Of a stretch of 45,596 nt of DNA, positions 2,786-43,268 are shown in pieces. The translations under genes and the position numbers were made by a program. Location of the stretch: IMG/VR virus record IMGVR_UViG_2778261121_000003, positions 1 through 45,596 of that record. One strand, written 5' to 3'. Within the stretch, counting starts at the first letter, position 1. Each line of letters starts with the position of its first letter. Origin of the DNA: a virus. Its lineage: Duplodnaviria > Heunggongvirae > Uroviricota > Caudoviricetes. The notes below the pieces were generated by a model. That model saw only the letters and a list, made by a program, of their open reading frames with translations, made no database searches and had not been told where the DNA came from.

Positions 2786-2807
2786 AATAAGTAAGTAATT
2801 ACTTAGT
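2786..2807 (+). promoter_or_regulatory. conserved intergenic motif (ATAAGTAAGTAATTACTTAG), putative phage promoter/operator
   Basis: Member of the GATAAGTAAGTA-type motif family found about 14 times in intergenic DNA, always in + orientation; here in the divergent region between the helicase and ParB-like genes. Confidence 0.4.
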
Positions 2808-2823
2808 AGATTGTAGCAATAAA

Positions 2824-3504
2824 ATGGATGTAAAAATCACGATTTTGCAGGTTGATGTTGCCAACCTTCGCCCGAATACCTGGAACACCAATTCGGTTGG
2901 TGCGCAGAATTTTGAAAAACTGAAAGGTTCTATCGAAAAATTGGGCTTTTTTAAGCCAATTTTGGCTCGTGAACTTGAAGATGGATTTTTTGAAATCCTC
3001 GGCGGCGAACATCGCTGGCGTGCTGCTATTGAGCAAGGAATTTCAACGGTTCCGGTGCTTTCTGTGGGCAAAATTAGCGATGTCGTAGCTAAACAGATGT
3101 CACTGGTGGACAACGAGCGATACGGTGAAGACGACCAAATCGCATTGCAACGCTTCATTGAAGAAATTCAGTCAGAACTTGACTATCAACTGTCTGAAAT
3201 CGCCCCGTATGACGACGAAATCTCGATGGTTTTAGCAAAAGAGGCGGCAATCGACCTTGAAGCACTGGAGGCGTTGTCTCGTGGTAGTGATGAGCCTGTC
3301 GATACCGACAAACGAGAGAAAACCGAACGTGTGGGGGCGGAACATCAGACCATGCGCTTCAAAGTAACTTTCGATGCGTCAGATCGTGTTGCAGAAACCA
3401 TAAAAAACATCATCAAAGAGCAGGCTATTAACACCGGTAATGAAATGGAGAACGCTGGTGAGGCTCTGGTGTGGCTGGTCGACTACTACAAGGAGCGTAT
3501 GTAA
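2824..3504 (+). CDS. ParB N-terminal domain (ParB/Srx-like) protein, paralog 1
   Basis: 226 aa; ParB-box-like GGEHRWRAAIEQG followed by a hydrophobic stretch, typical of the ParB/sulfiredoxin N-domain. Confidence 0.8.
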   Translation: MDVKITILQVDVANLRPNTWNTNSVGAQNFEKLKGSIEKLGFFKPILARELEDGFFEILGGEHRWRAAIEQGISTVPVLSVGKISDVVAKQMSLVDNERYGEDDQIALQRFIEEIQSELDYQLSEIAPYDDEISMVLAKEAAIDLEALEALSRGSDEPVDTDKREKTERVGAEHQTMRFKVTFDASDRVAETIKNIIKEQAINTGNEMENAGEALVWLVDYYKERM

Positions 3505-4172
3505 TGACCAAAAAGTTTGAAATCGTATATCGCGACCCGGCAGATCTTATTCCCTATGAGATGAATGCCAAAAAGCATGATGAACAGCAGATCCGAGATC
3601 TGGCCGCAGCCATTAAAAAGCGCGGATTTGACCAGCCAATTACGGTCGATAAGAACGACGTAATTATTACTGGCCACGGCCGCCGTGAGGCTGCAATTTT
3701 TGCTGGACTTGAGCGCGTACCGGTTATTGTTCGCGATGATCTCAGTGATGACGAGGTTCGTGCGAAGCGCCTTGAAGATAACCGACTTGCCAGCATTGAT
3801 TACGATGCAATTAAGCTACAGAAAGAGCTTGAGTCGCTTGTTCTGGACGATATCGAGGTTTTCGGCTTTGAAGAGCGTGAGTTGAATGTTCTCGTTGGCA
3901 GTATGACAGAAGAAATGGACACCGACTCGCTAGTTATCGATCTTGGCGAAGAAACTAAACGACAGAAGGATGAACACACCGAGATCAGTCGTGAAGTTGC
4001 AGCGGAAGAAGTACGTGTTGTCGACGTATTGGGCTTTAAAACGCTCCCTGCTGGCTCTGCCATTGTTGTTGGTGATTTGCTTGCCCATATGGAAGAAATG
4101 ACGGGAGAAAGCGGGGTAGACGCATTTGTGGCATATGCGGAGAAGATCTCTTCCGGGGAGATGGCTGCATGA
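3504..4172 (+). CDS. ParB N-terminal domain (ParB/Srx-like) protein, paralog 2
   Basis: Start ATG at 3504 overlaps the upstream stop (TAATG) with AGGAG SD at 3491-3495; ParB-box-like ITGHGRREAAIFAG. Confidence 0.8.
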   Translation: MTKKFEIVYRDPADLIPYEMNAKKHDEQQIRDLAAAIKKRGFDQPITVDKNDVIITGHGRREAAIFAGLERVPVIVRDDLSDDEVRAKRLEDNRLASIDYDAIKLQKELESLVLDDIEVFGFEERELNVLVGSMTEEMDTDSLVIDLGEETKRQKDEHTEISREVAAEEVRVVDVLGFKTLPAGSAIVVGDLLAHMEEMTGESGVDAFVAYAEKISSGEMAA

Positions 4173-4834
4173 GCAAATACATCATCAACGTATCGTTTCA
4201 GACACGCGTAAATAAAACCACGCGCACGTTGGAAATCGCTGAGTCGTTTGGGCTTGGCCTGGACGAAAAAGAGTGGACGCTTTACGACAATCTGGAGCTG
4301 GAAGTGAAGCAGGGCGATGTGGTGTACATCACCGGCCAATCCGGTTCCGGCAAATCCGTTGTGCTGCGCGAGTTACAACGACAGATGAAGGATGAAGGGC
4401 TGTCTGTAGCCTCCATCGATGATTTTACCTTCGATAATGAGGTTAACGTCATCGATCAGTTGGGCAAAACGACCAGCGATGCGCTTGGGTTGTTATCTAT
4501 GGCTGGTCTGAACGATGCATATCTGTTTGTTCGCAAGCCTTCTGAAATGTCAGACGGTCAGAAATATCGTCTCAAGATTGCCAAACTGATTGAGTCAGGC
4601 GCTAAAGTGTGGGCTGCTGACGAGTTCGGTGCTGTTCTCGACCGTGTAACCGCTCAGGTTGTGGCATCTAATCTCCAGCGTGCCGCTCGAAAGGTTGGTG
4701 CGACGGTAATGGTGGCGACGACTCACGAAGACCTGAAGAACGCGCTGCGCCCGGATATGCAGATCACCAAGCACTACAAAGAACGCGTGAAGGTGGAATA
4801 TCACAATGGTAGTCATGATGAGGTCTATTCATGA
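4169..4834 (+). CDS. minimal ABC-type ATPase (nucleotide-binding domain only)
   Basis: 221 aa; Walker A GQSGSGKS, ABC-signature-like SDGQKYR, Walker B/D-loop VWAADEFGAVLD, H-loop-like ATTHE; start overlaps the upstream stop (ATGA). Confidence 0.75.
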   Translation: MSKYIINVSFQTRVNKTTRTLEIAESFGLGLDEKEWTLYDNLELEVKQGDVVYITGQSGSGKSVVLRELQRQMKDEGLSVASIDDFTFDNEVNVIDQLGKTTSDALGLLSMAGLNDAYLFVRKPSEMSDGQKYRLKIAKLIESGAKVWAADEFGAVLDRVTAQVVASNLQRAARKVGATVMVATTHEDLKNALRPDMQITKHYKERVKVEYHNGSHDEVYS

Positions 4835-5721
4835 CGGACATCATCATTAAACGCTACCGCCCTGAAGAGTTTCCGCGTCATCTGGACTTTCTGGAGCGAA
4901 TGACTGTTACAAAGGGAACTGTAGAGGACTGGCACGCTCTTAAGTCGCTTCACTACAAAACAGACGGCAAACCTTTCGCGCCAACTTACTATCGCTGCGA
5001 ACTTGATGACCGTCTGGTGGGCGTCGTGGTTATGGCTTACCCGAAACTACTGTTGGCACCTCGCCACCGCATGTTTCCTAAGTTGAAACCAACCACTAAT
5101 ACCACCGTGGCTAACCAGTACTGGGGTCGGTACGTGAATAACAACTTTGCGGTGATTAGTCGCTCAGTTGTGGATACTCAGTATCGTGGCGTAGGCGTCT
5201 CTTATCGAATGATTAACCTGGTTAGCAGGATGCATGACCGGCCAATCATTGAGATCCAGTCCTCGATGAGCAAATACAATCCCTTCGCCATGAAAGCAGG
5301 GTTTAAGTTCATCCGCCCTGAGCGACCGAAGAGCTATGAAAGTGCACTGCGTGTTTTCCAGCGTCATTTTCGTTCCGACCCGGGTGATAACGAGGCGATC
5401 GTCAAAGAGTTGTTCGCAATGAGCGAGTCACGTCGTCGCCGTGCACTGCGTGATCTGGTGGCGGACTACCACAAGAACAGTTCCCTGGCAAAAGCTGGGC
5501 GGAATCGCGGCACGACGATTCAGGACATTGCCGACAGTCTGGTGGACGAGGCCAGTATTGTGAAGCTGCTCAAGGACATTCACAACCTGAGCTTTACGTC
5601 TCCGTTGTATGGTGTGTATCGAAACCCTGACTTTGGTCGTCGACTGCCTGACACGCTGCCACTGCTGGCATTCGACAAACAACCTTTGGATAAACCGTTA
5701 GAAATTGCTTTACCGGCATAA
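4831..5721 (+). CDS. hypothetical protein with probable GNAT-fold acyltransferase domain
   Basis: 296 aa; GNAT motif-A-like VDTQYRGVGVSYRMINLV after a hydrophobic beta-strand; long C-terminal extension; start overlaps the upstream stop (ATGA). Confidence 0.6.
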   Translation: MTDIIIKRYRPEEFPRHLDFLERMTVTKGTVEDWHALKSLHYKTDGKPFAPTYYRCELDDRLVGVVVMAYPKLLLAPRHRMFPKLKPTTNTTVANQYWGRYVNNNFAVISRSVVDTQYRGVGVSYRMINLVSRMHDRPIIEIQSSMSKYNPFAMKAGFKFIRPERPKSYESALRVFQRHFRSDPGDNEAIVKELFAMSESRRRRALRDLVADYHKNSSLAKAGRNRGTTIQDIADSLVDEASIVKLLKDIHNLSFTSPLYGVYRNPDFGRRLPDTLPLLAFDKQPLDKPLEIALPA

Positions 5722-5730
5722 GGATTTGCC

Positions 5731-5997
5731 ATGACGTTAACCGACAAACAAAAGGACATCATCAAAACGCTCAATCTCGGTTATGAGCGAGGTCATCTAC
5801 TTGATCTGGACGAATTGCTTGAAGTTTTGCCGTACAAGACAACAAAGCAAAGTATCCAGTTCTCAATTCGCGCTCTGATAAAAAAGGGGCTGGTGGAGAA
5901 AGGGCATACGCGCCAACGCAGTGACAATCGCTATCACCGCCGGACTCTTGGGTTAACCACTTTAGGTCGAGCCAAAGCGAAGTTACTGGTGATGTAA
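5731..5997 (+). CDS. small putative DNA-binding (winged-helix-like) protein
   Basis: 88-aa basic protein at the end of the ParB/ABC/GNAT operon; SD AAGGA upstream; HTH assignment is inference from size and charge pattern. Confidence 0.5.
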   Translation: MTLTDKQKDIIKTLNLGYERGHLLDLDELLEVLPYKTTKQSIQFSIRALIKKGLVEKGHTRQRSDNRYHRRTLGLTTLGRAKAKLLVM

Positions 5998-6021
5998 TCG
6001 GTCTGGGACGTTATTTAAAGA

Positions 6022-6076
6022 CCTGCTTCTGTATATATAAATAATAAGTAACTTATTAAATATATACGGAAGCAGG
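6022..6076. repeat. 55-bp AT-core palindrome, copy 1
   Basis: CCTGCTTCTGTATATATAAATAATAAGTAACTTATTAAATATATACGGAAGCAGG; near-perfect dyad symmetry; a near-identical copy lies at 36151-36205; flanked by outer inverted GGTCTGGG/CCCAGACC. Confidence 0.8.
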
Positions 6077-6193
6077 CTTAGTAAGACATGCCCAGACCTA
6101 ATTAGACACACCAGAAAACAAGTTGGTTAGCAGATGCAGTAAACAAGTTGTTTTAGAGCGCATGGACGCGCTCTGTGTGTTTTAGAGGGATCT

Positions 6194-6826
6194 ATGACTG
6201 TCGAAAAAGACGAGGTAAAAACTCGCCTGACACCAGCGGAGTGGGCCGAAGCTGAAGCCAAATGGACGTCAGGCGAATATACACTCTCAAAGCTGGAGGA
6301 AGAGTACGGCATTCGTCGTGAAACACTCTCCAGACATTTCAAAAAGCGAGGATTAGAGAAAGGCGCGGACTCTGTTGGGAAGATGGTTCGTGAGTCTCTT
6401 AAATCTGACGCAGAGCTTCGCGCTAAAGCCCGTGCGGAAAAGATAGAAGAACGTCGTACACGTTATGACGGCTGGGCGTATGCGTTGGGGCAGATGGTGA
6501 TGGTCGAAGTCACTACGGCCAAACGTGAGGGTAAGCCTTTAGGGGCGATTGAGGGTTCTCTCAAGAGCTTACAGAGAGCCAGTAATACCCTTGCAAAATG
6601 CTTTGAAGTTTCGTCCAAAGCATTGGGCATGGATCATGCGGAAAATGACGAGGAAGAAATTCCTAACCTGGTATTTGGTGAGCTTACGCCTTCCCAGGTG
6701 GCGAAATTACGTCAGGAAGACGACGAGCCTGAAATCATCGATGACGAATTGCTTGAGACGTTGGAAGAAGAAGCTCTAAGCGAATTTGATGCGACAGATG
6801 ATGGAAGTGAAGGGGAGGACGAATAA
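6194..6826 (+). CDS. putative terminase small subunit
   Basis: 210 aa; HTH-like N-terminus and acidic C-terminus; sits directly upstream of and abutting the large terminase gene; SD GAGGGA. Confidence 0.55.
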   Translation: MTVEKDEVKTRLTPAEWAEAEAKWTSGEYTLSKLEEEYGIRRETLSRHFKKRGLEKGADSVGKMVRESLKSDAELRAKARAEKIEERRTRYDGWAYALGQMVMVEVTTAKREGKPLGAIEGSLKSLQRASNTLAKCFEVSSKALGMDHAENDEEEIPNLVFGELTPSQVAKLRQEDDEPEIIDDELLETLEEEALSEFDATDDGSEGEDE

Positions 6827-8082
6827 TGGCAATCCCGTCCTCGCTCAGTCTTGTGCAACTGCATTCTGGACAGATGAAAGTCTTCCAGTCTCCGCATCGA
6901 TTTAAAGTTGTTTGTGCTGGTCGACGCTGGGGAAAATCCCGGTTGTCGATCTCCACTATTATTCGTGCGGCGGCAAAGGAAAAAAAGCAAAGGGTCTGGT
7001 ATGTCGCTCCTACTTACCAGATGGCTCGCCAGATTTTGTGGGACGATCTACAGGAAGTTCTGCCCCGTAAGTGGGTTAGGAAAAAGAACGACACCACGAT
7101 GACAATCGTGTTGAAGAACGGTTCGGAGATCGCCCTCAAAGGTGCTGATAAACCTGACACTCTGCGCGGCGTAGCGTTGCATTTTGTAGTGCTTGATGAA
7201 TTTCAGGATATGAAGGCTGACACCTGGTACAAGGTGTTACGACCTACTCTTTCATCGACACGCGGCGGTGCACTGATTATTGGTACGCCAAAAGGCTTCT
7301 CGGAATTTCACAAACTGTGGACTATAGGCCAGAACGTAGAGCTGCAAAGAAAGGGACAGTGGAAGAGCTGGCAGTTTGTAACTGCTGATTCGCCGTTTGT
7401 GCCTACGGCGGAAATTGAAGCTGCTAAGAACGATATGGACCCTAAATCGTTCGCTCAGGAGTACCTGGCCAGCTTTGAAAATATGTCCGGGCGCGTTTAC
7501 TACCCGTTCGATCGAAACGTGCATGTTAAACCGCTTCAGTTCAACCCTCGGTTGCCTATATGGGTAGGACAGGACTTCAACATTGACCCGATGTCTTCCG
7601 TAATTTTGCAACCTCAGCCAAATGGTGAGCTATGGGCAATTGATGAATTGGTGCTCTTTTCCTCTAACACGGCAGAGGTTTGTGATGAGCTTGAGAGGCG
7701 CTTCTGGCGCTGGAAATCACAGATAACGGTATTTCCAGATCCGGCAGGTGCTTATCGCCAACATGCTCGCGGGGAGTCTGACGTAGACATATTCAAAGAG
7801 AAGGGATTCTTACGTGTCGATTATTCGAAAAAGCACCCGCCAATTGCGGATCGTGTTAATGCTGTTAACCGAATGCTGATGACCGCATCTGGAGATATCC
7901 GGCTGTATATCGATCCGAAGTGCAAGCATTTGATTGATTCACTGGAAAAGGTCATCTACAAGCCTGGAACACGAGATATGGATAAGACAGGTGGCATTGA
8001 GCATAGTGCAGACGCATTGGGCTATCCAGTACATCGTAGGTATCCAGTCAAAAACCGTGTTATTCTTGGTGGTTCTCGATAG
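6826..8082 (+). CDS. terminase large subunit
   Basis: 418 aa; Walker A VVCAGRRWGKS and Walker B HFVVLDEFQ in the N-terminal ATPase region. Confidence 0.85.
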   Translation: MAIPSSLSLVQLHSGQMKVFQSPHRFKVVCAGRRWGKSRLSISTIIRAAAKEKKQRVWYVAPTYQMARQILWDDLQEVLPRKWVRKKNDTTMTIVLKNGSEIALKGADKPDTLRGVALHFVVLDEFQDMKADTWYKVLRPTLSSTRGGALIIGTPKGFSEFHKLWTIGQNVELQRKGQWKSWQFVTADSPFVPTAEIEAAKNDMDPKSFAQEYLASFENMSGRVYYPFDRNVHVKPLQFNPRLPIWVGQDFNIDPMSSVILQPQPNGELWAIDELVLFSSNTAEVCDELERRFWRWKSQITVFPDPAGAYRQHARGESDVDIFKEKGFLRVDYSKKHPPIADRVNAVNRMLMTASGDIRLYIDPKCKHLIDSLEKVIYKPGTRDMDKTGGIEHSADALGYPVHRRYPVKNRVILGGSR

Positions 8083-8097
8083 GTAAGTAATTATCTA
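8078..8097 (+). promoter_or_regulatory. conserved intergenic motif (GATAGGTAAGTAATTATCTA)
   Basis: GATAAGTAAGTA-family motif 12 bp upstream of the portal start. Confidence 0.35.
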
Positions 8098-8108
8098 AGG
8101 TTATTCAA

Positions 8109-9683
8109 ATGGAATTGAACGACAAACAAATTAAGGATCTGGTGGCGCGACGCCACCCGGAATACGAAAAGAAAAAAGAACATTGGGACTTCCTCGCCAG
8201 CACTTACGCTGGCGGGCGTGGTTGGTTTACAGACAATATCTTTCGTTACTTTAAAGAGGGAGATCAGGAGTTTAAGGAGCGAGTTGAACGTGCTTATCGC
8301 TTCAACCACACTCGTGAGGTGGTAAACCTCATCAACAAATATCTCTTTAAAGAAGACATTCATAGAAATATCGAAGAGGCACCAGAGCAGATCCGCAATT
8401 TCTGGAAACGTGCGACCCGCCAGAATGCCTCTATTGACTCATTTATGGCCGCTATTGATTTGCAGTCGTCTATTTACGGTCGCATATGGGTTGTTGTCGA
8501 TAGCACGATGAGTGGTGATGTTGAGTCAGTAGCTGACGAGAAAAAGAAAGATGCTCGCGCCTACGCCTACTGGATTTCACCTCAGCAAATGCTGGATGTG
8601 GCATGGGACGACGACGGGAATATGTTGTGGGCGTTAATTGTGGAAGTCGCTCGTGATGACGCAGATCCTTTTACTTCTACAGGTCAGGAATACCAACGTT
8701 ATCGTCTGTGGACACAAAACGAGTGGTATCTGTTCCGTGAGGAAGTGAAGAAAGGCGCTGGTGGAGCGGGTCGCCGTCAGGCAAAAGTTATTTTAGAGGA
8801 TAGCGGTGCGCATAATCTCGGCGTAGTTCCTGTGTTTCCTGTTGATTGTATTGGAGAAAGTGAATCACCGTATTTCAGCCCATCGTTGATCGATGATATC
8901 GCTTATCTTGATCGTGCGGTTGCAAACTATCTGTCAAACCTTGATGCCATTATTCAGGATCAGACATTTAGCCAGTTGGCTATACCGGTACAGTCGCTTT
9001 TACCTGGTGATGAAAACCACACTAAAGTGCTTGAAATGGGCACAAAGCGAGTCTTCACCTACGATTCTGAAGGTGGAAACCAGCCGTTTTATCTGTCACC
9101 AGACCCGAAACAAGCTCAGATGATCATCACTACGATTAAGACGGTGATTAACGAAATCTACCATTCAGTTGGTGTAGCTGGTGAGCGAACGAAGCAGGAC
9201 AACGCACAGGGAATCGATAACTCATCTGGTGCCGCAAAAATGTATGACTTCCAGCGTGTAAATAGCTTGCTTGTCACAAAAGCAGAGCGTCTGGAAAGGG
9301 CTGAACGCCAAATCATGCTACTGGTTGCGAAATGGATGGGGGTAGATCTGGACGAAGACCACTCTTTAATTGCGTATCCAGAAAGTTTCGATATTCGTGG
9401 CCTTACAGATGAATTTTCTGTTGCCGAGAAACTGTCGTTACTTCAGGCACCGGACTCTGTACGTCGTCACCAGATGGAAATGCTGATTGAGAAGATTTTC
9501 CCGAACATCACTGAGGCGATGAAAAAGGAATTTGATAAAGATCTCTTGAATTTTCCGCCAAAAAATGATCTAAACACCCTTGAAAATAAGTCGGTACTTA
9601 CTTATGATCGTGGTGCAGCCCAAGAAAGCGGGCAAGATCAACCCCGAGGGAATGGGGACTCATCTACTCAAGAGAACGAGTGA
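8109..9683 (+). CDS. portal protein (putative)
   Basis: 524-aa ORF immediately after the large terminase; assignment by size and position; no motif verified. Confidence 0.7.
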   Translation: MELNDKQIKDLVARRHPEYEKKKEHWDFLASTYAGGRGWFTDNIFRYFKEGDQEFKERVERAYRFNHTREVVNLINKYLFKEDIHRNIEEAPEQIRNFWKRATRQNASIDSFMAAIDLQSSIYGRIWVVVDSTMSGDVESVADEKKKDARAYAYWISPQQMLDVAWDDDGNMLWALIVEVARDDADPFTSTGQEYQRYRLWTQNEWYLFREEVKKGAGGAGRRQAKVILEDSGAHNLGVVPVFPVDCIGESESPYFSPSLIDDIAYLDRAVANYLSNLDAIIQDQTFSQLAIPVQSLLPGDENHTKVLEMGTKRVFTYDSEGGNQPFYLSPDPKQAQMIITTIKTVINEIYHSVGVAGERTKQDNAQGIDNSSGAAKMYDFQRVNSLLVTKAERLERAERQIMLLVAKWMGVDLDEDHSLIAYPESFDIRGLTDEFSVAEKLSLLQAPDSVRRHQMEMLIEKIFPNITEAMKKEFDKDLLNFPPKNDLNTLENKSVLTYDRGAAQESGQDQPRGNGDSSTQENE

Positions 9684-9691
9684 TAAGTAAC
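9681..9691 (+). promoter_or_regulatory. conserved intergenic motif (TGATAAGTAAC)
   Basis: Motif-family member overlapping the portal stop codon, 14 bp upstream of the scaffold gene start. Confidence 0.3.
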
Positions 9692-9704
9692 AAAAGGAAT
9701 TTTT

Positions 9705-10592: not shown

Positions 10593-10617
10593 CATCTAAA
10601 TCAAAGGGAATTGATAG

Positions 10618-11505: not shown

Positions 11506-11523
11506 TAGATAGGTAATTATCTA
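11506..11523 (+). promoter_or_regulatory. conserved intergenic motif variant (TAGATAGGTAATTATCTA)
   Basis: Palindromic variant of the motif family, immediately upstream of the terminator hairpin. Confidence 0.3.
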
Positions 11524-11530
11524 TGTTAAA

Positions 11531-11557
11531 GGGTGGGCTATACGCCCACCCTTTTTG
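11531..11557 (+). terminator. rho-independent terminator
   Basis: GGGTGGGC-tatac-GCCCACCC hairpin followed by TTTTT. Confidence 0.7.
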
Positions 11558-14692: not shown

Positions 14693-15076
14693 GTGTTTAT
14701 TGAAGCGTTTGCAAGTTTGATGCAGAAGGCAAAGATTGGCATGGTCGGGACTGACATTTTCTGTCACTACTTGCCTGCCAATGTGAAATCTGGCGTCCTG
14801 CTTATTAACCCAAATACCGGTATCAGCATCGATCATGAGCTACAGGGCTTTTACCACGAATCATTCACAATAATTGTGCGTGGTTCGTCAATTACTACGA
14901 CGGTTGAGAAAGCCAATAAAATCATTGAGATGTTTCCAGTAGAGGAAACGGAATCTGGTGGTGTTTATTTTCGACTGGTACGACCGATGGCGATGCCAAT
15001 CATTTATCCCAAAAATGATGGAGCATTAATAGAAGCAGGCATTCCTGTTGAATTTGCTGGCTATTTATTGAATTAA
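14693..15076 (+). CDS. hypothetical tail terminator/completion protein
   Basis: Preferred GTG start at 14693 right after the upstream stop, with GAGAGG SD; in-frame with track ORF 14570..15076. Confidence 0.45.
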   Translation: MFIEAFASLMQKAKIGMVGTDIFCHYLPANVKSGVLLINPNTGISIDHELQGFYHESFTIIVRGSSITTTVEKANKIIEMFPVEETESGGVYFRLVRPMAMPIIYPKNDGALIEAGIPVEFAGYLLN

Positions 15077-15083
15077 GTTAATC

Positions 15084-15103
15084 GGTAAGTATATACTTAC
15101 TAT
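15084..15103 (+). promoter_or_regulatory. conserved intergenic motif (GGTAAGTATATACTTACTAT); possible sigma70-like promoter
   Basis: Motif-family member; upstream TTGAAT (15068-15073) and TATACT about 18 bp later resemble -35/-10 elements; 48 bp upstream of the major tail protein start. Confidence 0.4.
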
Positions 15104-15150
15104 TAGCGCAATGAATGCGTAGAATTAACGGAAAAAGGAGTTTTCCATCA

Positions 15151-21562: not shown

Positions 21563-21568
21563 GTATCT

Positions 21569-21592
21569 GGATAAGTAAGTACTAATTTACTA
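21569..21592 (+). promoter_or_regulatory. conserved intergenic motif (GGATAAGTAAGTACTAATTTACTA)
   Basis: Motif-family member followed by a GC hairpin (GGCGCT...AGCGCC) and the L-like gene. Confidence 0.35.
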
Positions 21593-21644
21593 TCATTGTG
21601 GCGCTGACAGGATGTTAGCGCCTACTTATTTCAAGGATGAAACA

Positions 21645-28487: not shown

Positions 28488-28508
28488 AAATAAGTAGGTA
28501 CTTACTTT
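28488..28508 (+). promoter_or_regulatory. conserved intergenic motif (AAATAAGTAGGTACTTACTTT)
   Basis: Motif-family member followed by a hairpin (GGTGGGC...GCCCACC) and AAGGAG SD of the tail fiber gene. Confidence 0.35.
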
Positions 28509-28552
28509 ATGGTGGGCAAGGATAGCCCACCAAATCAAGGAGCATATTCAAC

Positions 28553-31500
28553 ATGTGGTACAGGGAAGGTACTATCACATTTACACAGGGTAGTAATACT
28601 CTAGTTGGGGTTGGGACAGCCTGGAACGTAACAGCTAATGGTGTGTTGCCGGGAATGATCGTCATTGGTCCCGACAATAAGCTGTATGAGATCAAGCGTG
28701 TAACCAGTGATACGAATATTGTTCTCTCAGAACCTTATACCGGCGAAACTCAGTCTGAAGTTCCGTGCCGAATCATTACGACCTATGAAGGCGACTTAAC
28801 ACAGTTTAGCGCGCGCTTTACTGCGCTAATGTCGCGTATGTCGGCTGATTCCAAGTCCATGCGCAGTTGGTTGACTGCGCTGGATGAGGTGACAATCGAG
28901 CGTGAAGACGGTACAGAAGTGACCGTTAAGCCGCTGATGCAGATCGTCAACGAGCACAACGAAAACGTTGAGTGGTATAAAAATAACACCGACGCGATTG
29001 ACGCTGCTGGCGACAAAGCTCGTGAGGCGGCGGCCAGTGCTGCCGCAGCAGCAGAAAGCGCCAATACCGCTGGAGAAAAAGCATCTCAAGCGTCTCAAAG
29101 TGCACAGGCTGCAGCTTCGTCACAAAGTGCCGCTAGCGCGAGTGAGTCTGCTTCAAGGGTATCTGAAACGAACGCAGAATTAGCAAAAGAAGCAGCTGCA
29201 CAATCGGAGGCTATCGCATCATCAGCAGCTGCTGCGGCTAATGAAAAAGCTATAGAGGCCACAAATCAGGCAACAACTGCGAAAAATTATGCATTAGAAG
29301 CAAAGTCATCTGAATTAAATGCAAAGGCTTCAGAAGACAATGCGGCTTCCTCTATGGCCGCAGCTGCTGAATCTGCAAGTTCTGCGTCTTCATCAGAGAG
29401 TTCTGCTTCTGCTTCAAAAGATGAGGCTGCACGTCAAGCATCTGAGGCTGCTGGAAGTGCTGTGATAGCGTCAACAAAGGCAACAGAGGCGGAAGGCAGT
29501 GCTACGGCTGCATCTCAGAGCAAAACTGCTGCTGAATCCGCTGCGATACGTGCAGAAGCTGCCGCTGATCGTGCTGAGGAGATTGCCGGTGCAGTTGCGA
29601 TGGAAGACGCAAGTCTTACAACTAAAGGTGTTGTGAAACTTAGTAGTGCTGTCGACAGCACCAGTGAATCGCTGGCCGCAACGCCAAAAGCAGTTAAAGC
29701 AGCCAATGACAATGCAAATAGCAGGTTGGCGAAAAATCAGAACGGTGCAGATATCCAGGATAAATCAGCTTTTCTGGACAATGTTGGCGTCACCAGCCTG
29801 ACGTTTATGAAAAACAACGGAGAAATGCCGGTTGATGCTGACCTGAATGCTTTTGGCCCCGTTGAGGCTTATCTTGGCGTCTGGTCTAAAGCAACATCCA
29901 CCAACGCAACACTGGAGAAAAATTTCCCGGAAGATAATGCTGTCGGTGTGCTTGAGGTTTTTGCAGCTGGCAATTTTGCAGGTACGCAACGCTTCACCAC
30001 GAGAGACGGCAATGTATACATACGCAGACTCGCCAATAAGTGGAATGGCTCTGATGGTCCGTGGGGCATATGGCGTCACACTCAATCAGCTACCCGCCCT
30101 TTGAGTACGGCTATAGACCTGAATACGCTTGGAGCCGCCGAACATCTTGGTTTATGGCGTAACAGTAGCTCGGCTATAGCTTCATATGAACGCAATTATC
30201 CAGAGGAAGGCGGCTTTGCTCAGGGGATGCTTGAGATCCTCGAAGGCGGAAATTATGGAAGAACGCAACGTTATACCACTCGCCGTGGAAATATGTATGT
30301 CCGCTGCCTTGCGGCAAGCTGGGATGCATCAAATCCGCAGTGGGAACCGTGGTTAAGAGTCGGTCATCAGTCAGAGAGCCGTTATTACGAAGGTGATTTG
30401 AATGTTCTAACCGACCCTGGTATTTACAGTGTGACGGGTAAAGCGAGCAATGGTCCATTGCTGGATTCATCCGGTGCAACACTACTAGGGGTGTTAGAGG
30501 TTATCAGACGTTTTGATTACGTTGCCGTATTGCAACGCTATACCACAACAGGGACAGGAACGACAACGAAAGGTCGCTCATATGAACGAGTCTATACCGC
30601 CAGCTCATGGAGCGAATGGCGGGAAGTCTACACCTCGTATTCACTTCCCCTGAATCTGGGTATCGGTGGCGCAGCAGCAAAACTCACCAGTCTGGACTGG
30701 CAGACCTACGACTTTGTGCCGGGCAGTCTGATAACCGTTCGGCTGGATAACATGACCAATATTCCCGACGGTATGGACTGGGGGGTCATTGATGGCAACC
30801 TGATAAACATCGCTGTTGGCCCAAGTGATGATACCGGTACGGGACGCTCAATGCATGTATGGCGCAGCACTGTAAGTAAAGCCAACTACCGCTTTTTTAT
30901 GGTGCGTATTTCAGGAAATCCGGGAAGCCGCACGATCACAGCAAGACGTGTGCCAATTATCGACGAAGCCCAAACCTGGAGTGCTCACCAGACATTCAGC
31001 GGTGGTCTTGGCGGAGAGCTGTCCGGCAATGCTGCTACAGCTACTAAATTGCAGACAGCAAGAACCATCGGTGGTGTAAGCTTCGATGGCACTGCTAATA
31101 TTAATTTGCCTGGTGTTAATGCTGCCGGTAATCAGAACACTACCGGTAACGCGGCCACAGCGACCAAGTTGCAAACTGCTAGAACTATTAACGGGGTGTC
31201 GTTTAACGGCTCTGCGAATATTTCAATACCAACAATTACGTCCAGAGGACGCGTTACTGCGCTCACCGGTACAACACAAGGTGCTGCGACTGGATTGCAG
31301 ATGTACGAGGCATATAACAATGGTTATCCTTCTGATTACGGAAATGTACTTCACTTAAAAGGGGCAACGGCCGTTGGTGAAGGCGAGTTGTTCATTGGCT
31401 GGAGTGGTACAAGTGGCGCTCATGCACCTGTACATGTACGTTCGCGACGAGATACTGATACGGCTAGTTGGTCAGAGTGGGCGCAAGTTTATACGTCCAA

Positions 31501-32440: not shown

Positions 32441-32455
32441 TGATAAGTAAGTACA
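32441..32455 (+). promoter_or_regulatory. conserved intergenic motif (TGATAAGTAAGTACA)
   Basis: Motif-family member upstream of the lysis cassette. Confidence 0.35.
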
Positions 32456-32524
32456 CACCTACAATAAGAGGGTGAAATGTGATATAAGTCCGCCATCCCG
32501 ATTTGACTTTTCATGGAGGAAAAC

Positions 32525-34913: not shown

Positions 34914-35092
34914 TTGTAATATAGAGGTCATTGTTACTTTTTTCAACAGACAAATACAAGCTATGATTGCCAATTGTTAATCACAACCTACCATTTAACC
35001 TTTACACCGCAGCCGTAGGCATTTAGGCTATATCACATATAAGAAAACAAGTTGTTTCAGACGATAATTATATACGCAAAGGGAACTCTCCA

Positions 35093-35761: not shown

Positions 35762-36120
35762 TGTCCATGAAAATGGGTGACCTAGCAAAGCGCAAAGAGC
35801 CTGATGCACCGGCTAAGAACACAACTCCTTTGCGCCAACCAGTCAGACCGCAGGGACGCCCGACTCGTGGCAAAGAGAAAATTAAAAGCCGCACAATGTC
35901 ACTGGAGGACGAATACTTCGAACTGCTTGAGATGATGAAGTTCATCCCTCGCTTCGAGAAGTTCACCCGTTCTGACGTGATTCGCGCAGCCATTTTCCAT
36001 CTGGCAGAGAAGTCACCGCAGGAAATCGAGGACATCGTGAAACTTAACGAGGCGATCACAGCTGCCGACGTTACGATGCGTACCGATGAAATCAAGCGAG
36101 AACTCATGAAAAAAGGCTGA
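35761..36120 (+). CDS. putative ParG-like RHH centromere-binding partner
   Basis: 119 aa; basic disordered N-terminus then a short strand-helix-helix-like C-terminal region; translationally coupled to the ParA gene (ATGTCCATGA overlap). Confidence 0.5.
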   Translation: MSMKMGDLAKRKEPDAPAKNTTPLRQPVRPQGRPTRGKEKIKSRTMSLEDEYFELLEMMKFIPRFEKFTRSDVIRAAIFHLAEKSPQEIEDIVKLNEAITAADVTMRTDEIKRELMKKG

Positions 36121-36150
36121 CAACTACCGGTCTGGCAGCTTCAATCAGAA

Positions 36151-36205
36151 CCTGTTTCTGTATATAAATAATAAGTAACTTATTAAATATATATACGGAA
36201 GCAGG
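36151..36205. repeat. 55-bp AT-core palindrome, copy 2
   Basis: CCTGTTTCTGTATATAAATAATAAGTAACTTATTAAATATATATACGGAAGCAGG; near-identical to 6022-6076, with the TA-repeat count shifted between arms; 30 bp downstream of the ParA/RHH cassette. Confidence 0.8.
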
Positions 36206-36287
36206 TCTTTTAAAAGACACCCACCAGAACAACTCCCTTCCGTTTCCACTTCCAAAAACTGACACCAGTCGCTATCATCCGCTCATT

Positions 36288-36303
36288 GTGATAAGTAAGT
36301 AAC
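36288..36303 (+). promoter_or_regulatory. conserved intergenic motif (GTGATAAGTAAGTAAC)
   Basis: Motif-family member 20 bp upstream of the next gene start. Confidence 0.35.
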
Positions 36304-36322
36304 TACCTACCAGGTGAGCCAC

Positions 36323-37063
36323 ATGAGCCAAATCTTTTTCGACACCATCGACAACGACCAGTACGACTTCATGACAGAGTGGAATACCGCTGTTATGGAT
36401 AAGTGGGTTGCTGAAAACATTGGTTTGTCGCGCTGCAAAGACGAGGCTGAACTTTTCGATACGAAGTGGTTTGATTACCGCGACATGCATCCTCTTATGG
36501 CCACCTGTCTATTTACGGAGGCATACAAACGTCAGTACTCAAATATCATGCTGACGCACGGTCGTGAACACTTTGAAACAGCTCCGTTCACCACCGGGTT
36601 AAAACGCCTGCCTTATCAGGAGTTGTCGACTGCCAATAAAACGTCGCTATGGAAAGCACGCCAGTTTGCTGACCGCTATTGCTGCTCATACGACTACTTT
36701 ATCTCCACCGTGCTTTCCGCAGCTGCACGACGTCTGTGGGACAAGCTGCCTCGCCCACAGCATTTGTGGCAGCCAGAACTGATTGAGATATTTGAAGAGA
36801 AATTAGCCAGACGCGCAACAACCCGTCTGGATGACTCTCTGGTTAGCTTTAAGCATATGGGAGACATGCAGTTCAACCCGATCCAGGAAAGCTATTTTGA
36901 GTGGATTCTGGAGCGTTTACGCACCATCCCCCGCAGCAAGCGCATACGCGCAATTTTCTCCGCTATCTGGCTAATGGAAATCGTTCCAGAGCGCCTTATT
37001 TCCGCCCACTTTCCAGAAGAACTGGAAGAAGCACGGCGGTTTATTGATCCCCTATCTAATTAA
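36323..37063 (+). CDS. hypothetical protein
   Basis: Preferred ATG 36323 with AGGTGAG SD (track start 36314 is GTG); no recognisable motifs. Confidence 0.6.
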   Translation: MSQIFFDTIDNDQYDFMTEWNTAVMDKWVAENIGLSRCKDEAELFDTKWFDYRDMHPLMATCLFTEAYKRQYSNIMLTHGREHFETAPFTTGLKRLPYQELSTANKTSLWKARQFADRYCCSYDYFISTVLSAAARRLWDKLPRPQHLWQPELIEIFEEKLARRATTRLDDSLVSFKHMGDMQFNPIQESYFEWILERLRTIPRSKRIRAIFSAIWLMEIVPERLISAHFPEELEEARRFIDPLSN

Positions 37064-37106
37064 CTAATACTAGAAAACAATTTGTTTAAAAAACAAAGGA
37101 AAGCAC

Positions 37107-38447: not shown

Positions 38448-38529
38448 AAAATAAGCGTGGAGAACACCTCCACGCTTGATTCATTGGTGAAACAACTTTT
38501 CTTTTGCCAAACCACAAAAGAAAAACACA

Positions 38530-39710: not shown

Positions 39711-39722
39711 CAAACGCCGTTA

Positions 39723-39745
39723 AAATAAGTAGATGGTTACTTATC
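39723..39745 (+). promoter_or_regulatory. conserved intergenic motif (AAATAAGTA-n6-TACTTATC inverted repeat)
   Basis: Motif-family member upstream of gene 39786. Confidence 0.35.
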
Positions 39746-39785
39746 TTTCTGTAAGAATACTTTCATCTGTTAGCTAGGAGTTGGT

Positions 39786-40568
39786 ATGAAAGACGAAATT
39801 CAGAAATTAGCCTGCGACATCATTGATAAAACTGGTTTAGAAATCAGCGAGAGCAATCGACTAGACATCATTGAAAAAGCGGTAAAAACAGCAATGGATC
39901 ATATCGCCACTCGTTTGGTTGAGATCCCGCTACCAGGGCTACCTTATCTGAAAGTTGAGTTACACGTATGGGGTGAACCTTCTTGTGTAGGGCGTTCTGC
40001 ATTAGTTGTTTTTATTAGCAAAGAAAACCCGCTCAGTCTTAAAGTGCAGGTTGGTGCATGGATGGATGGCAAAGTGATCTACACAAATACCGTTTTTTGT
40101 GCGCCAAACGACAGTATTATTGAAGAGGCTATTCAGGAATCACTTCTAACTATGCATAGCTTAGTTTTGCTGGAAGACAAGCAAAACTACGAAGAGTACT
40201 TACGGTCGATAAAAGGTGAGAGAACATTGTCACTTAAAGCCGATTTCGTTACCCCGACAAACCTGTTGGAAGTCTTGCTTAATAAAGGGGCTAATGATGC
40301 CGTAAATGTAATCAGAGAGAGTGAGTATGCGTCTCTTTGCGACATGTGCAAAAGCCAGTTGGATCTGGTGCATATCGTTATTGATGCTGGGAAGGCATGT
40401 GATGGCGTAATGGCGGAATTTGCTGGGAAGATGGTCAGGATTGCTAACGAATTACCGATGATAGAGCAAGAGGCTAAATCATACGCCACCAATCATGTCA
40501 CAGAGCTTCTTGTCCCCTATCGATTAGAAAGCAATCAGCGCAAGATGATTAGCTGGGGAAGTTGGTAA
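39786..40568 (+). CDS. hypothetical protein
   Basis: 260-aa ORF with AGGAG SD; no recognisable motifs. Confidence 0.6.
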   Translation: MKDEIQKLACDIIDKTGLEISESNRLDIIEKAVKTAMDHIATRLVEIPLPGLPYLKVELHVWGEPSCVGRSALVVFISKENPLSLKVQVGAWMDGKVIYTNTVFCAPNDSIIEEAIQESLLTMHSLVLLEDKQNYEEYLRSIKGERTLSLKADFVTPTNLLEVLLNKGANDAVNVIRESEYASLCDMCKSQLDLVHIVIDAGKACDGVMAEFAGKMVRIANELPMIEQEAKSYATNHVTELLVPYRLESNQRKMISWGSW

Positions 40569-40599
40569 TCTCTCCGCGCGTCGTTTTTTTACGCAAACA

Positions 40600-40614
40600 A
40601 TGATAGGTAAGTAC
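40600..40614 (+). promoter_or_regulatory. conserved intergenic motif (TGATAGGTAAGTACA)
   Basis: Motif-family member 10 bp upstream of the 40625 ATG. Confidence 0.3.
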
Positions 40615-40624
40615 AAGATTATTT

Positions 40625-41107
40625 ATGGCGATTGTTGTGAAAGCTGATTTGTCAAAAATCCCCTCTATTTCAGGAAATAATGGTTATTCACTTCGTTGTG
40701 AGGAAGTAAAGATAAACGGTGAGTCGGCATATTGCAGCTACTCCGTTTGCCAGCACACCATTCTTGCCTTCAAAGAAAACCGTCTTCCTCGAACTTCATT
40801 CCAGTCGTGCGCAACCGCTATCAAAGCAGGCAAATGCAAGGCGTTAAAAATGATGGTTGAAGAGATTCGTAAAGGAGAATCTCTGTATTTCGAAGATATG
40901 ACCGCGCTCATTAAGGAGGTTGAAGAACGGAATAAACAAGCCAGAACTATAAAACGAAAACGTGACAGCGTAACGATTAATAGCATGGTTAAGAAGAGCG
41001 CCACATCACAAACAGCGATCACTGACGTGTATGCGGCGTTGCTTGAAGAAACAACAAAAGAAACACATGAGCAAATCGATCAACATATGGAGGCAAAACA
41101 ACAATGA
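40625..41107 (+). CDS. hypothetical protein (Cys-rich N-terminal region)
   Basis: 160-aa ORF; several Cys in the first 80 residues; no clear SD; overlaps the ligase start (ATGA). Confidence 0.5.
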   Translation: MAIVVKADLSKIPSISGNNGYSLRCEEVKINGESAYCSYSVCQHTILAFKENRLPRTSFQSCATAIKAGKCKALKMMVEEIRKGESLYFEDMTALIKEVEERNKQARTIKRKRDSVTINSMVKKSATSQTAITDVYAALLEETTKETHEQIDQHMEAKQQ

Positions 41108-42426
41108 AAAAGTTGATCGCACTTAAGCATAAGCTGGACGAAATGAAAGCTATGGGAACCAATGCAAAAAAAGAGGCATTGGCCAACATGGATGACTTCG
41201 AGCAAAGCATGGTTTCATTGATGCTCAACCCTTTCATCCGTTTTGGGGTAAAGAAATACAAAGTGGCAGAGCCGCTTAGTGAGTCCGTCCCAAGTGACGA
41301 AAAAGCCATTGATATACTGAATAAGCTGGCCTCTCGCGAGCTGACGGGGAACGCAGCAATAGTTGCTGTTGAGTCTATCGTGGCGTCAATGTGCGCCGAT
41401 GGGCAGGACGTCTTCCGTCGTTTCCTCTTAAAAGATCCGAAAGCTGGCGTTGGGATTAGCCTATGCAACAAGGTTTTTGAAAATCCCATTCCGAAATTCG
41501 AGGTGCAGCTGGCGTCACCGTATAAAGAAAAAGGCGACAAATACCCCTTCAAGCCAAATCCTAAAGCAAAATGGCCGATGATTGGCAGCCTTAAGCTCGA
41601 TGGTTTGCGAGTAATTTGCGAGGTTATTGTTGACGAAGAAGAGGTTAACTTCCTTTCTCGTACTGGTAATCCAATCACGTCTCTCGATCACCTAAAGCCA
41701 GCCATGCTCGAATTAGGCAAACTTTCAGGCCACAAACACATCTTCTTCGATGGTGAAGGAACAGCCGGTTCATTTAACCAGTCCGTATCTGCATTGCGCA
41801 AAAAGAACGTGCAGGCAATTGGCGCTATTTATCATGTTTTCGACTTCTTCCTACCGGAATGGCGGGCACAGGCTAAATCCAAAGAGTATGCAAAGACAGG
41901 TATGAAGCTGAAAGAGCGCCTGGCTATGCTCGTGGCGTTGTTCAAAAACGATCGCAGTGAAGACTACGCGCAAGACATTCACCTGCATCCGTTCTACATC
42001 ATCCATAGCCACGAAGACTTCATCGAACGCTTCATGAAACGCCTGGACGATAACGAAGAAGGGGAGATGGGCAAAGATCCGAACTCTGTTTACGAGTTTA
42101 AACGTACCCGCAGCTGGTGGAAGTTAAAAGACGAAGATTCAGAAGATGGTGAAATTATCGACTTTGAGCCGGGCGACCCGGACTCTGGTTTTGCCAACAC
42201 GCTTGGAAAAATTGTTATTCGCCTTGAAAACGGTGTGATTGTTCGTGCGAGCGGCATTAAGCATAAATATCTGGACGAGATCTGGAACAACAAAGAGAAG
42301 TACCGTGGTCGTATTGTTGAGGTTCATTGTCACGAGAAAACACCGGATGGCAGCTTACGCCACCCACGACTGAAATGGCCGCGTTGCTTACGCGATACAG
42401 AAGATCGAATCGGAGATAAAGAATGA
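41104..42426 (+). CDS. ATP-dependent DNA ligase
   Basis: 440 aa; adenylation motif I KLDGLR (IGSLKLDGLRVICEV). Confidence 0.85.
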   Translation: MKKLIALKHKLDEMKAMGTNAKKEALANMDDFEQSMVSLMLNPFIRFGVKKYKVAEPLSESVPSDEKAIDILNKLASRELTGNAAIVAVESIVASMCADGQDVFRRFLLKDPKAGVGISLCNKVFENPIPKFEVQLASPYKEKGDKYPFKPNPKAKWPMIGSLKLDGLRVICEVIVDEEEVNFLSRTGNPITSLDHLKPAMLELGKLSGHKHIFFDGEGTAGSFNQSVSALRKKNVQAIGAIYHVFDFFLPEWRAQAKSKEYAKTGMKLKERLAMLVALFKNDRSEDYAQDIHLHPFYIIHSHEDFIERFMKRLDDNEEGEMGKDPNSVYEFKRTRSWWKLKDEDSEDGEIIDFEPGDPDSGFANTLGKIVIRLENGVIVRASGIKHKYLDEIWNNKEKYRGRIVEVHCHEKTPDGSLRHPRLKWPRCLRDTEDRIGDKE

Positions 42427-42602
42427 TGCTCGGCTGGATGATTGCATTTTTAGCGGTTGGTTTTTTACTCGGTATTGTGGTGATGTCCAGTTGCATCAAT
42501 GACTATATTAAAAGCGGTGTTATAGAACGACGCGGTCGTATTTATCGCATTGTAGAAATAACCCACACAGTGAAGGAGATTAAGGATGATCGTATTAAGT
42601 AA
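42423..42602 (+). CDS. small single-pass membrane protein (paralog family member 1)
   Basis: 59-aa ORF not in the track; start overlaps the ligase stop (ATGA); N-terminal TM (WMIAFLAVGFLLGIVVM) then basic tail RGRIYRIVEITHTVKE. Confidence 0.45.
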   Translation: MMLGWMIAFLAVGFLLGIVVMSSCINDYIKSGVIERRGRIYRIVEITHTVKEIKDDRIK

Positions 42603-42801
42603 GCGGGAGAAGGAAACGCTTCATGAAATCAGTAAGTGGCCGGAGTTCCCTGAGTACTGGAAGCCTAAAACGCGGGCTAAGTTAGAGCGTTTAGGGTTGG
42701 TTGCAAACGTTTCTGAAACGTGGTGCTCGGCCAACTACCAGTTAACTGATAAAGGGAAAGTATTGCTACAGCAATTAGTAGAATCAGGAGTGTTAAAATG
42801 A
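42586..42801 (+). CDS. hypothetical small protein
   Basis: 71-aa ORF overlapping its neighbours; no recognisable motifs. Confidence 0.5.
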   Translation: MIVLSKREKETLHEISKWPEFPEYWKPKTRAKLERLGLVANVSETWCSANYQLTDKGKVLLQQLVESGVLK

Positions 42802-42950
42802 TTCCATACATCTCATTAGCTTTTATGGGTGGCTTCCTTATCGGCTTCGGCATCTGTCGTGATTTAATTAAGCAGGAACTTAAAACCAAAACACTGTGCA
42901 TCGGAAAGCGCGTGTATCGGGTAGTTCATGAAACAAAGGTTAGAAAATGA
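42798..42950 (+). CDS. small single-pass membrane protein (paralog family member 2)
   Basis: 50-aa ORF not in the track; AGGAG SD; ATGA overlap with the upstream stop; TM (ISLAFMGGFLIGFGI) then GKRVYRVVHETKVRK, similar to the tail of member 1. Confidence 0.45.
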   Translation: MIPYISLAFMGGFLIGFGICRDLIKQELKTKTLCIGKRVYRVVHETKVRK

Positions 42951-43237
42951 GCAATTTAACTTCTTTGGAATGGTGGTTGGCCACCTATTTCTTAGCGGCC
43001 GGAGTCGCATTCGCCTTTTACGTAGGTCAGTTAGTCGTAAAACTGCTGCTGATTAAATTTGCCAGTCATAAACGTATCGATGATGGTCTGTGGCGTCTTG
43101 GCACCCTGGTGGAAACTCGCTACGGGCAACTTAAGGAGAACGAAACCATTACTATCCAAGCGAAACGGTTCACTGCGACCATCACAAGAACACCTAGTCG
43201 TAGAGTGGGCTTGATCAAAAAAGTCACAACCGAATAA
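42947..43237 (+). CDS. membrane protein (possible third paralog)
   Basis: 96 aa; N-terminal TM (WWLATYFLAAGVAFAFYVGQLVV); ATGA overlap with the upstream ORF. Confidence 0.55.
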   Translation: MSNLTSLEWWLATYFLAAGVAFAFYVGQLVVKLLLIKFASHKRIDDGLWRLGTLVETRYGQLKENETITIQAKRFTATITRTPSRRVGLIKKVTTE

Positions 43238-43245
43238 AAACATAT

Positions 43246-43268
43246 CAATAAGTATTTACTTACTTATC
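43246..43268 (+). promoter_or_regulatory. conserved intergenic motif (CAATAAGTATTTACTTACTTATC)
   Basis: Motif-family member at the start of the long noncoding/tRNA region; candidate promoter for that region. Confidence 0.35.

Follow-up and report, generated by a model that had tools for sequence, protein, structure and literature searches.

A dispersed 18-bp dyad in SSU5-like phage-plasmids as a putative operator set of a prophage repressor

The repressor gp71 of mycobacteriophage L5 and other Cluster A phages has 20–30 operators or stoperators genome-wide, mostly in short intergenic spaces, with some sites in promoters and others within transcription units; the sites are asymmetric and 13–14 bp long, point in the direction of transcription and bind a monomer, and their consensus differs with the repressor between heteroimmune lineages (PMC6550527). 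Here, we describe a set of dispersed sites in a 45,596-nucleotide (nt) stretch of a Caudoviricetes genome (IMG/VR record IMGVR_UViG_2778261121_000003, positions 1 to 45,596; hereafter the window). The element is an 18-bp palindrome (the dyad) with abutting 9-bp arms of consensus TARGTAAGT and ACTTACYTA, and we propose with moderate confidence, from sequence comparison, that its copies form the dispersed operator set of a putative prophage repressor. Like the L5 sites, the dyads are numerous (12 in 45.6 kb, 25–26 per genome) and come in more than one type, TAAG versus TCAG. In contrast to the L5 sites, the dyad is an 18-bp perfect-type palindrome with equal strand scores and no significant arm asymmetry; it also belongs to an unrelated host and phage family, and its putative binder is small and of the XRE type, with binding and a block to elongation as predictions.

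The C1 repressor of phage P1 provides a second parallel, P1 likewise being an enterobacterial plasmid-prophage with many operators over ~100 kb that overlap -35 and -10 elements at differing registers; the C1 operators annotated in the P1 record NC_005856 are Oref, Omat, Ossb, Oc4, OrepL and Olpa. The P1 operators, on the other hand, are 17 bp long and asymmetric, with a sequence unrelated to the dyad. Moreover, P1 late genes are Lpa-dependent and not controlled by C1, whereas here one dyad precedes replication and structural genes. Short palindromes are also read by global regulators of other replicons: KorB binds 12 OB sites on the IncP plasmid RK2, and Noc binds chromosomal sites. The dyad resembles the OB and ParB/Noc sites in being a short palindrome with a dozen or more copies per replicon, in or near promoters, as would suit one protein with global control, but the ParB-like genes of this group are common to relatives without the dyad. 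We place the dyad neither with the P1 late promoters nor with the L5-type asymmetric stoperators, since it lacks the features that define each. The set differs from the L5 and P1 systems in that the site is symmetric and 18 bp long, is found in an unrelated phage-plasmid group and precedes early- and late-type genes alike.

The window belongs to an SSU5-like phage-plasmid of E. coli. Its identity is 94–96% to CMS-2020a, PhiR41_1 and Cyrano, which are phage-plasmids of E. coli, ~80% to Salmonella phage SSU5 and ~79% to Klebsiella phage-plasmids. A 2024 review names no regulator for the SSU5 group (PMC11652158), and no description of the motif was found in the searchable literature.

An unbiased k-mer test that made no use of a consensus returned TAAGTA as the hexamer most enriched in intergenic DNA (18 of 23 copies, p = 6e-14), and all ten ATAAGTA copies in the window were intergenic. 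The palindromic form was seen by reading the sites of SSU5 and of the Klebsiella phage-plasmid pJN2-26; several of the Klebsiella dyads are perfect (TAGGTAAGTACTTACCTA), and the flanks often read aaaATGA...TCATttt. Expressed as the pattern TARGTAAGNNCTTACYTA, the dyad had 11 matches in the window against 0.42 expected, 26 in SSU5 (0.4 expected) and 23 in 100 kb of pJN2-26. A position weight matrix (PWM) trained solely on the SSU5 and pJN2-26 sites and then applied to the window gave 37 strand-hits, compared to 1.0 in shuffled sequence, corresponding to 12 distinct sites with starts at 2788, 8080, 9587, 11506, 15082, 21572, 28491, 32444, 36292, 39726, 40604 and 43249. The totals are 12 dyads in the window, 25–26 in SSU5, where 21 of the 70 gaps of at least 40 nt hold one, and 22–23 in 100 kb of the 110-kb pJN2-26. 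In three-genome alignments of the window, SSU5 and pJN2-26, orthologous intergenic dyads are kept while their flanks diverge.

A first-pass annotation of the window had reported an orientation-specific intergenic motif with 14 instances, and its consensus TGATAAGTAAGTAC is indeed enriched, giving 14 matches with up to three mismatches against 3.2 expected, a number that none of 100 shuffles reached. Eleven of the listed instances are the dyad. Two others (6043-6057 and 36172-36186), with PWM scores of just 10–12 compared to 21–27 for most true sites, are the centres of a separate ~56-bp palindrome, and one (9681-9691) is a lone half-site, while a complete dyad inside the portal gene (9587-9604) had been overlooked. 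Its description of the motif as wholly intergenic is nearly true, apart from this copy in coding sequence and the one at 8080, which overlaps the stop codon of terL. The common orientation, in contrast, was not borne out, as the PWM scores are about equal on the two strands (e.g. 24.5 vs 23.7). Arm mismatches in the window number 10 on the left and 20 on the right (p = 0.18), and the other genomes show no asymmetry; the impression of direction arose because the better-kept arm was the one read, and with symmetric scores and a non-significant arm bias a directional motif was ruled out.

Whether the dyad acts as DNA or as RNA can be judged from how its arms vary. Positions 3 and 16 are the sole strongly variable pair, and they do not covary (A-T 15, G-C 13, G-T 8, A-C 14). 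Folded as RNA, the dyads reach just -0.2 to -5.9 kcal/mol, three being essentially unfolded, and Rfam matched only transfer RNAs (tRNAs) in the window. As the arms vary independently and the RNA hairpins are weak, the dyad is best explained as the DNA site of a dimeric protein. A signal at the RNA or translational level (a processing or stability hairpin, a terminator, or a three-frame stop of the form TGA-TAA..TAA..TAA at gene ends) would account for the motif often starting at or a few nt past the upstream stop codon, for the GC-rich hairpins that follow several copies and for the stops that, by inspection, TGATAAGTAAGTAA holds in three frames. We nevertheless consider it highly improbable: besides the weak folding and the lack of compensatory changes between the arms, the dyad has neither a GC-rich stem nor a T-run, and together with the Rfam result this led us to reject the hairpin, RNase-site and terminator candidates. 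The stop cassette was rejected on separate grounds, namely that the left arm of the corresponding Acinetobacter dyad (TCAGTCAGT) has no stop codons although its placement is unchanged, and that a divergent promoter region (2788) and a gene (9587) hold copies as well. Among the three roles that the first-pass annotation had offered, RNA processing is thus disfavoured by the weak hairpins and absent covariation, the association with promoters is supported, and an operator fits best.

The association with promoters was assessed with a simple sigma-70 matrix. Windows around the SSU5 dyads scored 8.69 on the gene strand versus 6.67 on the other strand (p = 0.002) and versus 4.55 for dyad-free intergenic windows (p = 1.7e-6). 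The register varies, with the dyad lying over the -35 at some sites and over the spacer or the -10 at others. In two scans covering the first 40 kb, 2824-40000 contained ~13 promoter-like matches on the + strand, three of which lie on dyads, and three of the 12 window dyads passed the scan threshold (9580-9608, 15068-15097 and 21568-21596). The first of these, TTGAAA-17-TATGAT, is near-consensus and the top + strand match of its scan (10/12); its spacer, within the portal gene, is filled exactly by the dyad, an arrangement conserved in three genomes. Since a plasmid-prophage cannot leave such a promoter open, this site is the strongest single argument for repression. These findings amount to an association with promoters and do not show that the sites are promoters of a new class recognised by a phage factor.

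As a separate observation, sigma-70-like matches are depleted in the window, occurring in 20001-45596 at about half the level of shuffled sequence (15 vs 27.6 ± 5.3, and 6 vs 15.4 ± 4.2), which suggests selection against stray promoters in the element.

The main alternative reading of the promoter overlap is that a phage-encoded activator binds the dyad and replaces the -35 of factor-dependent lytic promoters, as Lpa does at the 9-bp '-22 box' of P1. The P1 late promoters have the form AAGTNACTT-N4-TAnnnT (P1 record), which the sites here resemble: a small AAGT/ACTT palindrome lies in the spacer just upstream of the -10, mostly in promoters without a -35, as would be expected of activator-dependent promoters. 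Here, the core is AAGTACTT, followed after 3 nt by TAnnnT at 8 of 12 sites in the window, 13 of 25 in SSU5 and 14 of 21 in pJN2-26, and in about half of the sites TAnnnT is formed with the last two dyad bases; furthermore, many right arms in Acinetobacter are altered to make TATACT. Compared to the P1 box, however, the core lacks the central base and is thus 1 bp shorter, sits inside an 18–22 bp palindrome and is spaced 3 rather than 4 nt from TAnnnT. In the window, the exact 9-bp P1 form is confined to the middle of the two large palindromes (6046-6054 and 36173-36181). A tblastn search of SSU5 and the window with P1 Lpa gave no homologue, the best E value being 0.4, although remote homologues are possible. 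Several properties of the sites also speak against an activator, in that TAnnnT is mirrored on the other side in enteric genomes, the best promoter is overlapped in differing registers, near-consensus promoters whose spacer is occupied by a dyad would need no activator, and some sites lie just 3–13 nt from a start codon. Lytic relatives, moreover, express the same gene set without the dyad. Taken together, we regard activation through the dyad as unlikely.

Repression through the dyad is further addressed by comparison across lineages. In a distant relative, an SSU5-like plasmid of Acinetobacter baumannii with the same gene order, a different dyad, TCAGTCAGTACTGACTGA, occurs in 26 copies in 100 kb of 107 kb (0.24 expected) and occupies syntenic places, including the terminase-portal junction, the post-capsid region and the divergent region between the helicase and ParB-like genes. 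Matches to this type number 26 in Acinetobacter, two in SSU5, one in pJN2-26 and none in the window, and the enteric type in turn has just four matches in the Acinetobacter plasmid. The presence of a different dyad at syntenic places indicates that the system is old and that its specificity has changed.

The dyad co-occurs with a module comprising an integrase gene and, next to it, a gene for an XRE-family regulator, located just past the right end of the window in its closest relatives. A dyad variant lies ~30–100 nt upstream of the XRE start in Cyrano, PhiR41_1, pJN2-26, an Enterobacter plasmid and NZ_CP125183, and three dyad copies cluster around the XRE gene in Acinetobacter, where the regulator is 48% identical to the enteric one. 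In the recognition helix, Asn is found in the three enteric lineages whose dyad has A (TAAG), and Arg in Acinetobacter, where the dyad has C (TCAG). There are 865 plasmid records with a homologue of the XRE protein. Two lytic relatives, Pseudomonas phage nickie and Stenotrophomonas phage BUCTxx99, have the gene order and ParB-like genes of the dyad-bearing elements. Neither was listed when the phage collection was searched for the XRE protein, and a de novo count of inverted repeats gave no recurrent dyad in either, although it did recover the one known from the window, SSU5, pJN2-26 and the Acinetobacter plasmid in each of these four. A search of the PDB sequences with the XRE protein gave no match, and ten small candidate regulators from the window and SSU5, scanned against Pfam and PHROG, included no obvious dyad binder beyond the XRE and ParB_N proteins. 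Protein searches for a wider co-variation series reached close relatives only.

SSU5 itself was isolated as a plaque-forming phage and lacks the XRE gene. Compared to the 99.3%-identical Enterobacter plasmid NZ_CP134668.1, it is missing ~6 kb at SSU5 41776-42761 that encode phoH, gp49, grxA, a yafO-type toxin, the integrase, the XRE regulator and a cro-like protein. Because so similar a plasmid carries the phoH to int-XRE-cro segment at that spot, SSU5 appears to be a recent deletion derivative without the lysogeny module, and its intact dyads therefore weigh neither way.

The other candidate binders are the products of the genes at 2824-3504 and 3504-4172, two proteins of the ParB family, one of which could act on the dispersed palindromes as a global regulator in the manner of KorB or Noc. 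Both contain a ParB_N domain; residues 7–154 of the first align with residues 23–171 of Spo0J (PDB 1vz0), past the ParB_N domain, and the second matches KorB weakly, the KorB structure entries 8qa8 and 8qa9 appearing in its search. In the enteric genomes the first of the two genes has a dyad 18 nt before it, and in Acinetobacter a dyad falls within the initial codons of that gene; all dyad-bearing genomes, SSU5 included, carry the genes. Full-length homologues in the same gene order are, however, found in nickie and BUCTxx99, both without a recurrent dyad, and the dyads kept in the XRE-less SSU5 do not favour a ParB-like binder, being explained by the recent deletion. This renders a KorB-like role quite improbable, if less so than an RNA-level signal.

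An operator of a repressor fits best, because the arms of the dyad do not covary and the dyad overlaps promoters in variable register, changes in sequence with the lineage and co-occurs with the XRE/integrase module. In the mechanism that we propose, a phage-encoded dimeric DNA-binding protein, most likely the XRE-family helix-turn-helix regulator encoded beside the integrase, would bind the dyad as double-stranded DNA. The sites lie at the heads of, or the junctions between, lytic units for packaging, head, tail, lysis, replication and nucleotide metabolism. Most of them would overlie a sigma-70-type promoter core reading in the gene direction, and at the few where no promoter fits, the bound protein could only block elongation. 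In the plasmid-prophage state, the repressor would occupy all sites and keep ~90 kb of lytic genes silent, and its loss would release all units at once.

Several observations weigh against repression by the XRE protein, or at least temper it. Repression rather than activation is something we infer. At the right end of the dyad, TAnnnT may be just part of the palindrome in enteric genomes, as it is equally common on the mirror strand in SSU5 (13 vs 16 of 25), and a -35 placed 16–18 nt from it is not enriched above background (p = 0.18–0.47 in the enteric genomes; 0.066 in Acinetobacter), from which it follows that many sites are not complete sigma-70 promoters. The XRE-proximal copy is a variant, CTGGTAAGTGCTTACCGA, in which the outer TA is replaced, and with ~26 sites per genome a copy in the XRE/cro region could serve the divergent lytic operon whoever binds it. 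The correlation between Asn or Arg and the dyad type represents a single specificity switch, and nickie and BUCTxx99 are distant relatives with many other differences.

Exact-dyad matches in viral contigs outside the SSU5 group look like unrelated low-complexity TAAG repeats, and a match in Thauera proved to be an unrelated conjugative plasmid. In three unrelated low-GC viral contigs (GC ~0.35), a perfect TAAGTAAGTACTTACTTA was found 47 nt from a TCAGTCAGCACTTACTGA-type palindrome, so that both 'specificities' stand side by side; these contigs showed no similarity to SSU5 by tblastx.

The genes of the window between 2824 and 43237 are nearly all on the + strand, in the order ParB-like, terminase, portal, head, tail, tail fibre, lysis, toxin-antitoxin (on the - strand), parA, helicase, primase and ligase, with four tRNAs (44013-44839) following the ligase end of the array. 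Dyads precede structural, lysis and replication genes in the window, and nucleotide-metabolism genes as well in the full SSU5 genome, and none is present at the parA or toxin-antitoxin promoters of the window. They start -3 to 171 nt from the upstream stop codon, and the ten intergenic copies with a downstream gene end 3–55 nt before the next start codon. The palindromic copies are given below without a strand.

The first dyad (TAAGTAAGTAATTACTTA, 2788..2805; PWM 25.8/21.7 on the two strands) separates the helicase gene (- strand) from the divergently oriented first ParB_N gene, whose ATG at 2824 is 18 nt further on, and has orthologues at SSU5 99799 and pJN2-26 34780. At 8080..8097 (TAGGTAAGTAATTATCTA), the first 3 nt of the dyad are the terL stop codon and its end is 11 nt before the portal ATG; orthologues are found at SSU5 2032, pJN2-26 40581 and Acinetobacter 76006. 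A promoter plus leader would not fit there, which makes this dyad a candidate roadblock site, and the space at 40604 and 36292 is likewise too small for a promoter with a leader. The copy within the 3' end of the portal gene (TAAGTCGGTACTTACTTA, 9587..9604), which occupies the spacer of the + strand promoter-like match at 9580-9608 (score 14.3), is matched at SSU5 3545 and pJN2-26 42094. It is followed by the lone left half-site TGATAAGTAAC on the + strand (9681..9691), which overlaps the portal stop codon, is missed by the PWM and is kept in both SSU5 and pJN2-26. A degenerate dyad (TAGATAGGTAATTATCTA, 11506..11523; PWM 15.0/15.8) begins 9 nt after a capsid-region gene, with better copies at SSU5 5472 and pJN2-26 44027, and a terminator-like hairpin with a T-run lies 3' of it at ~11530-11552.

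In the tail region, the dyad before the major tail gene (TCGGTAAGTATATACTTA, 15082..15099) overlaps TTGAAT-18-TATACT (15068-15097; score 12.8), and the one after a minor tail gene (TAAGTAAGTACTAATTTA, 21572..21589) overlaps TGGATA-17-TATCAT (21568-21596) and is directly followed by a covarying hairpin (21600-21622). The tail-fibre gene is preceded by TAAGTAGGTACTTACTTT (28491..28508; PWM 25.5), next to a hairpin at 28510-28532, and the holin gene by TAAGTAAGTACACACCTA (32444..32461; PWM 24.5/23.7), 51 nt upstream. Further right, TAAGTAAGTAACTACCTA (36292..36309) lies 13 nt before the ATG at 36323 of a conserved replication-region gene, and TAAGTAGATGGTTACTTA (39726..39743) lies 42 nt before the ATG at 39786, with the conserved, extended -10-like TGTAAGAAT 9 nt downstream; the three-genome alignment keeps just the dyad and the TGTAAGAAT block at this locus. 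The weak dyad TAGGTAAGTACAAGATTA (40604..40621; PWM 10.9/18.7) has a good left and a poor right arm and ends 3 nt before the ATG at 40625. The last copy (TAAGTATTTACTTACTTA, 43249..43266) contributes its right-arm TTTACT as a -35, 17 nt upstream of TAAGAT (score 10.5), and is followed by a conserved non-coding block (43288-43317) and then by the tRNA cluster. A convergent-gene setting of this copy, which would oppose a promoter, was considered and rejected, since the - strand open reading frames (ORFs) there are probably spurious and the conserved non-coding block and tRNAs (+ strand) follow it.

GC-rich hairpins were found directly 3' of several dyads (15106-15120, 21600-21622, 28510-28532 and 11530-11552). 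Their pairing is kept by compensatory changes in SSU5 and Klebsiella, their loops often hold AGGAT, and a T-run is present solely in the one after the capsid-region gene. As the predicted transcription starts at the 15082 and 21572 sites fall at the hairpin base, these structures may be protective 5'-terminal stem-loops.

The region between the 43249 dyad and the tRNAs (43267-44012) is a highly conserved non-coding block (e.g. 43288-43317, TTGTTTTCGTTGAGACGCGACTGTTTGAAC) that had no match in Rfam and could be a small RNA or a tRNA leader; the - strand ORFs within it (43256-43543 and others) are probably spurious. At the other end of the window, the operon at 2824-5997 encodes the two ParB_N proteins, an ABC-type ATPase, an ATPase/acetyltransferase-like protein and a small protein, and is divergent from a DEAD-box helicase gene, an arrangement kept out to ~110 kb phages of Pseudomonas, Stenotrophomonas, Xanthomonas and Rhizobium. 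A ~1.4-kb part of the tail-fibre gene (29655-31048) is 89% identical to tail-fibre genes of P2-like phages (Peduovirus), which marks it, on sequence identity, as a mosaic host-range module.

The ~56-bp palindromes mentioned above form two near-identical, imperfect copies (6021-6076 and 36149-36206; CCTGCTTCTGTATATA..AATAAGTAACTTATT..TATATACGGAAGCAGG), one upstream of the small terminase gene and the other downstream of the par operon, with another copy near SSU5 33474. At the centre of each is AAGTAACTT, identical to the Lpa-box consensus of P1, AAGTNACTT, and the SSU5 and Cyrano records both start 9 nt to the right of the centre of the first one. They may be pac, centromere or origin-type sites. 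Another palindrome dispersed through intergenic DNA, GAAAACAAGTTGTTT, had 11 matches against 2.5 expected, including 6114-6128, 6139-6153, 35043-35057 and 37073-37087, upstream of terS, parA and a helicase gene; AAACAA-N-TTGTTT has eight copies in the first 50 kb of pJN2-26. It is probably the site of another regulator.

A bolder version of the proposal, which we hold only tentatively and think somewhat doubtful, is that one small XRE repressor silences the whole lytic genome through ~26 dyads that serve as operator and roadblock, and that immunity was reset from TAAG to TCAG largely by a single Asn-to-Arg change in the recognition helix. If true, SSU5-like phage-plasmids of Gram-negative bacteria would have a counterpart, with symmetric sites, to the stoperators of mycobacteriophages, and repressor sites spread over a whole genome would not be restricted to P1 and actinobacteriophages. 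Such an operator code would explain the lytic-phage behaviour of the deletion derivative SSU5; it could also be used to mark transcription-unit boundaries and to predict immunity groups, and would offer a handle for inducing or curing the plasmids. SSU5/pHCM2-like phage-plasmids are common in Klebsiella, E. coli, Enterobacter, Salmonella, Yersinia (pMT1) and Acinetobacter, and they carry clinically relevant resistance genes (PMC9600943, PMC12217456). Among these plasmids, the dyad type would, if the proposal holds, define superinfection-immunity groups.

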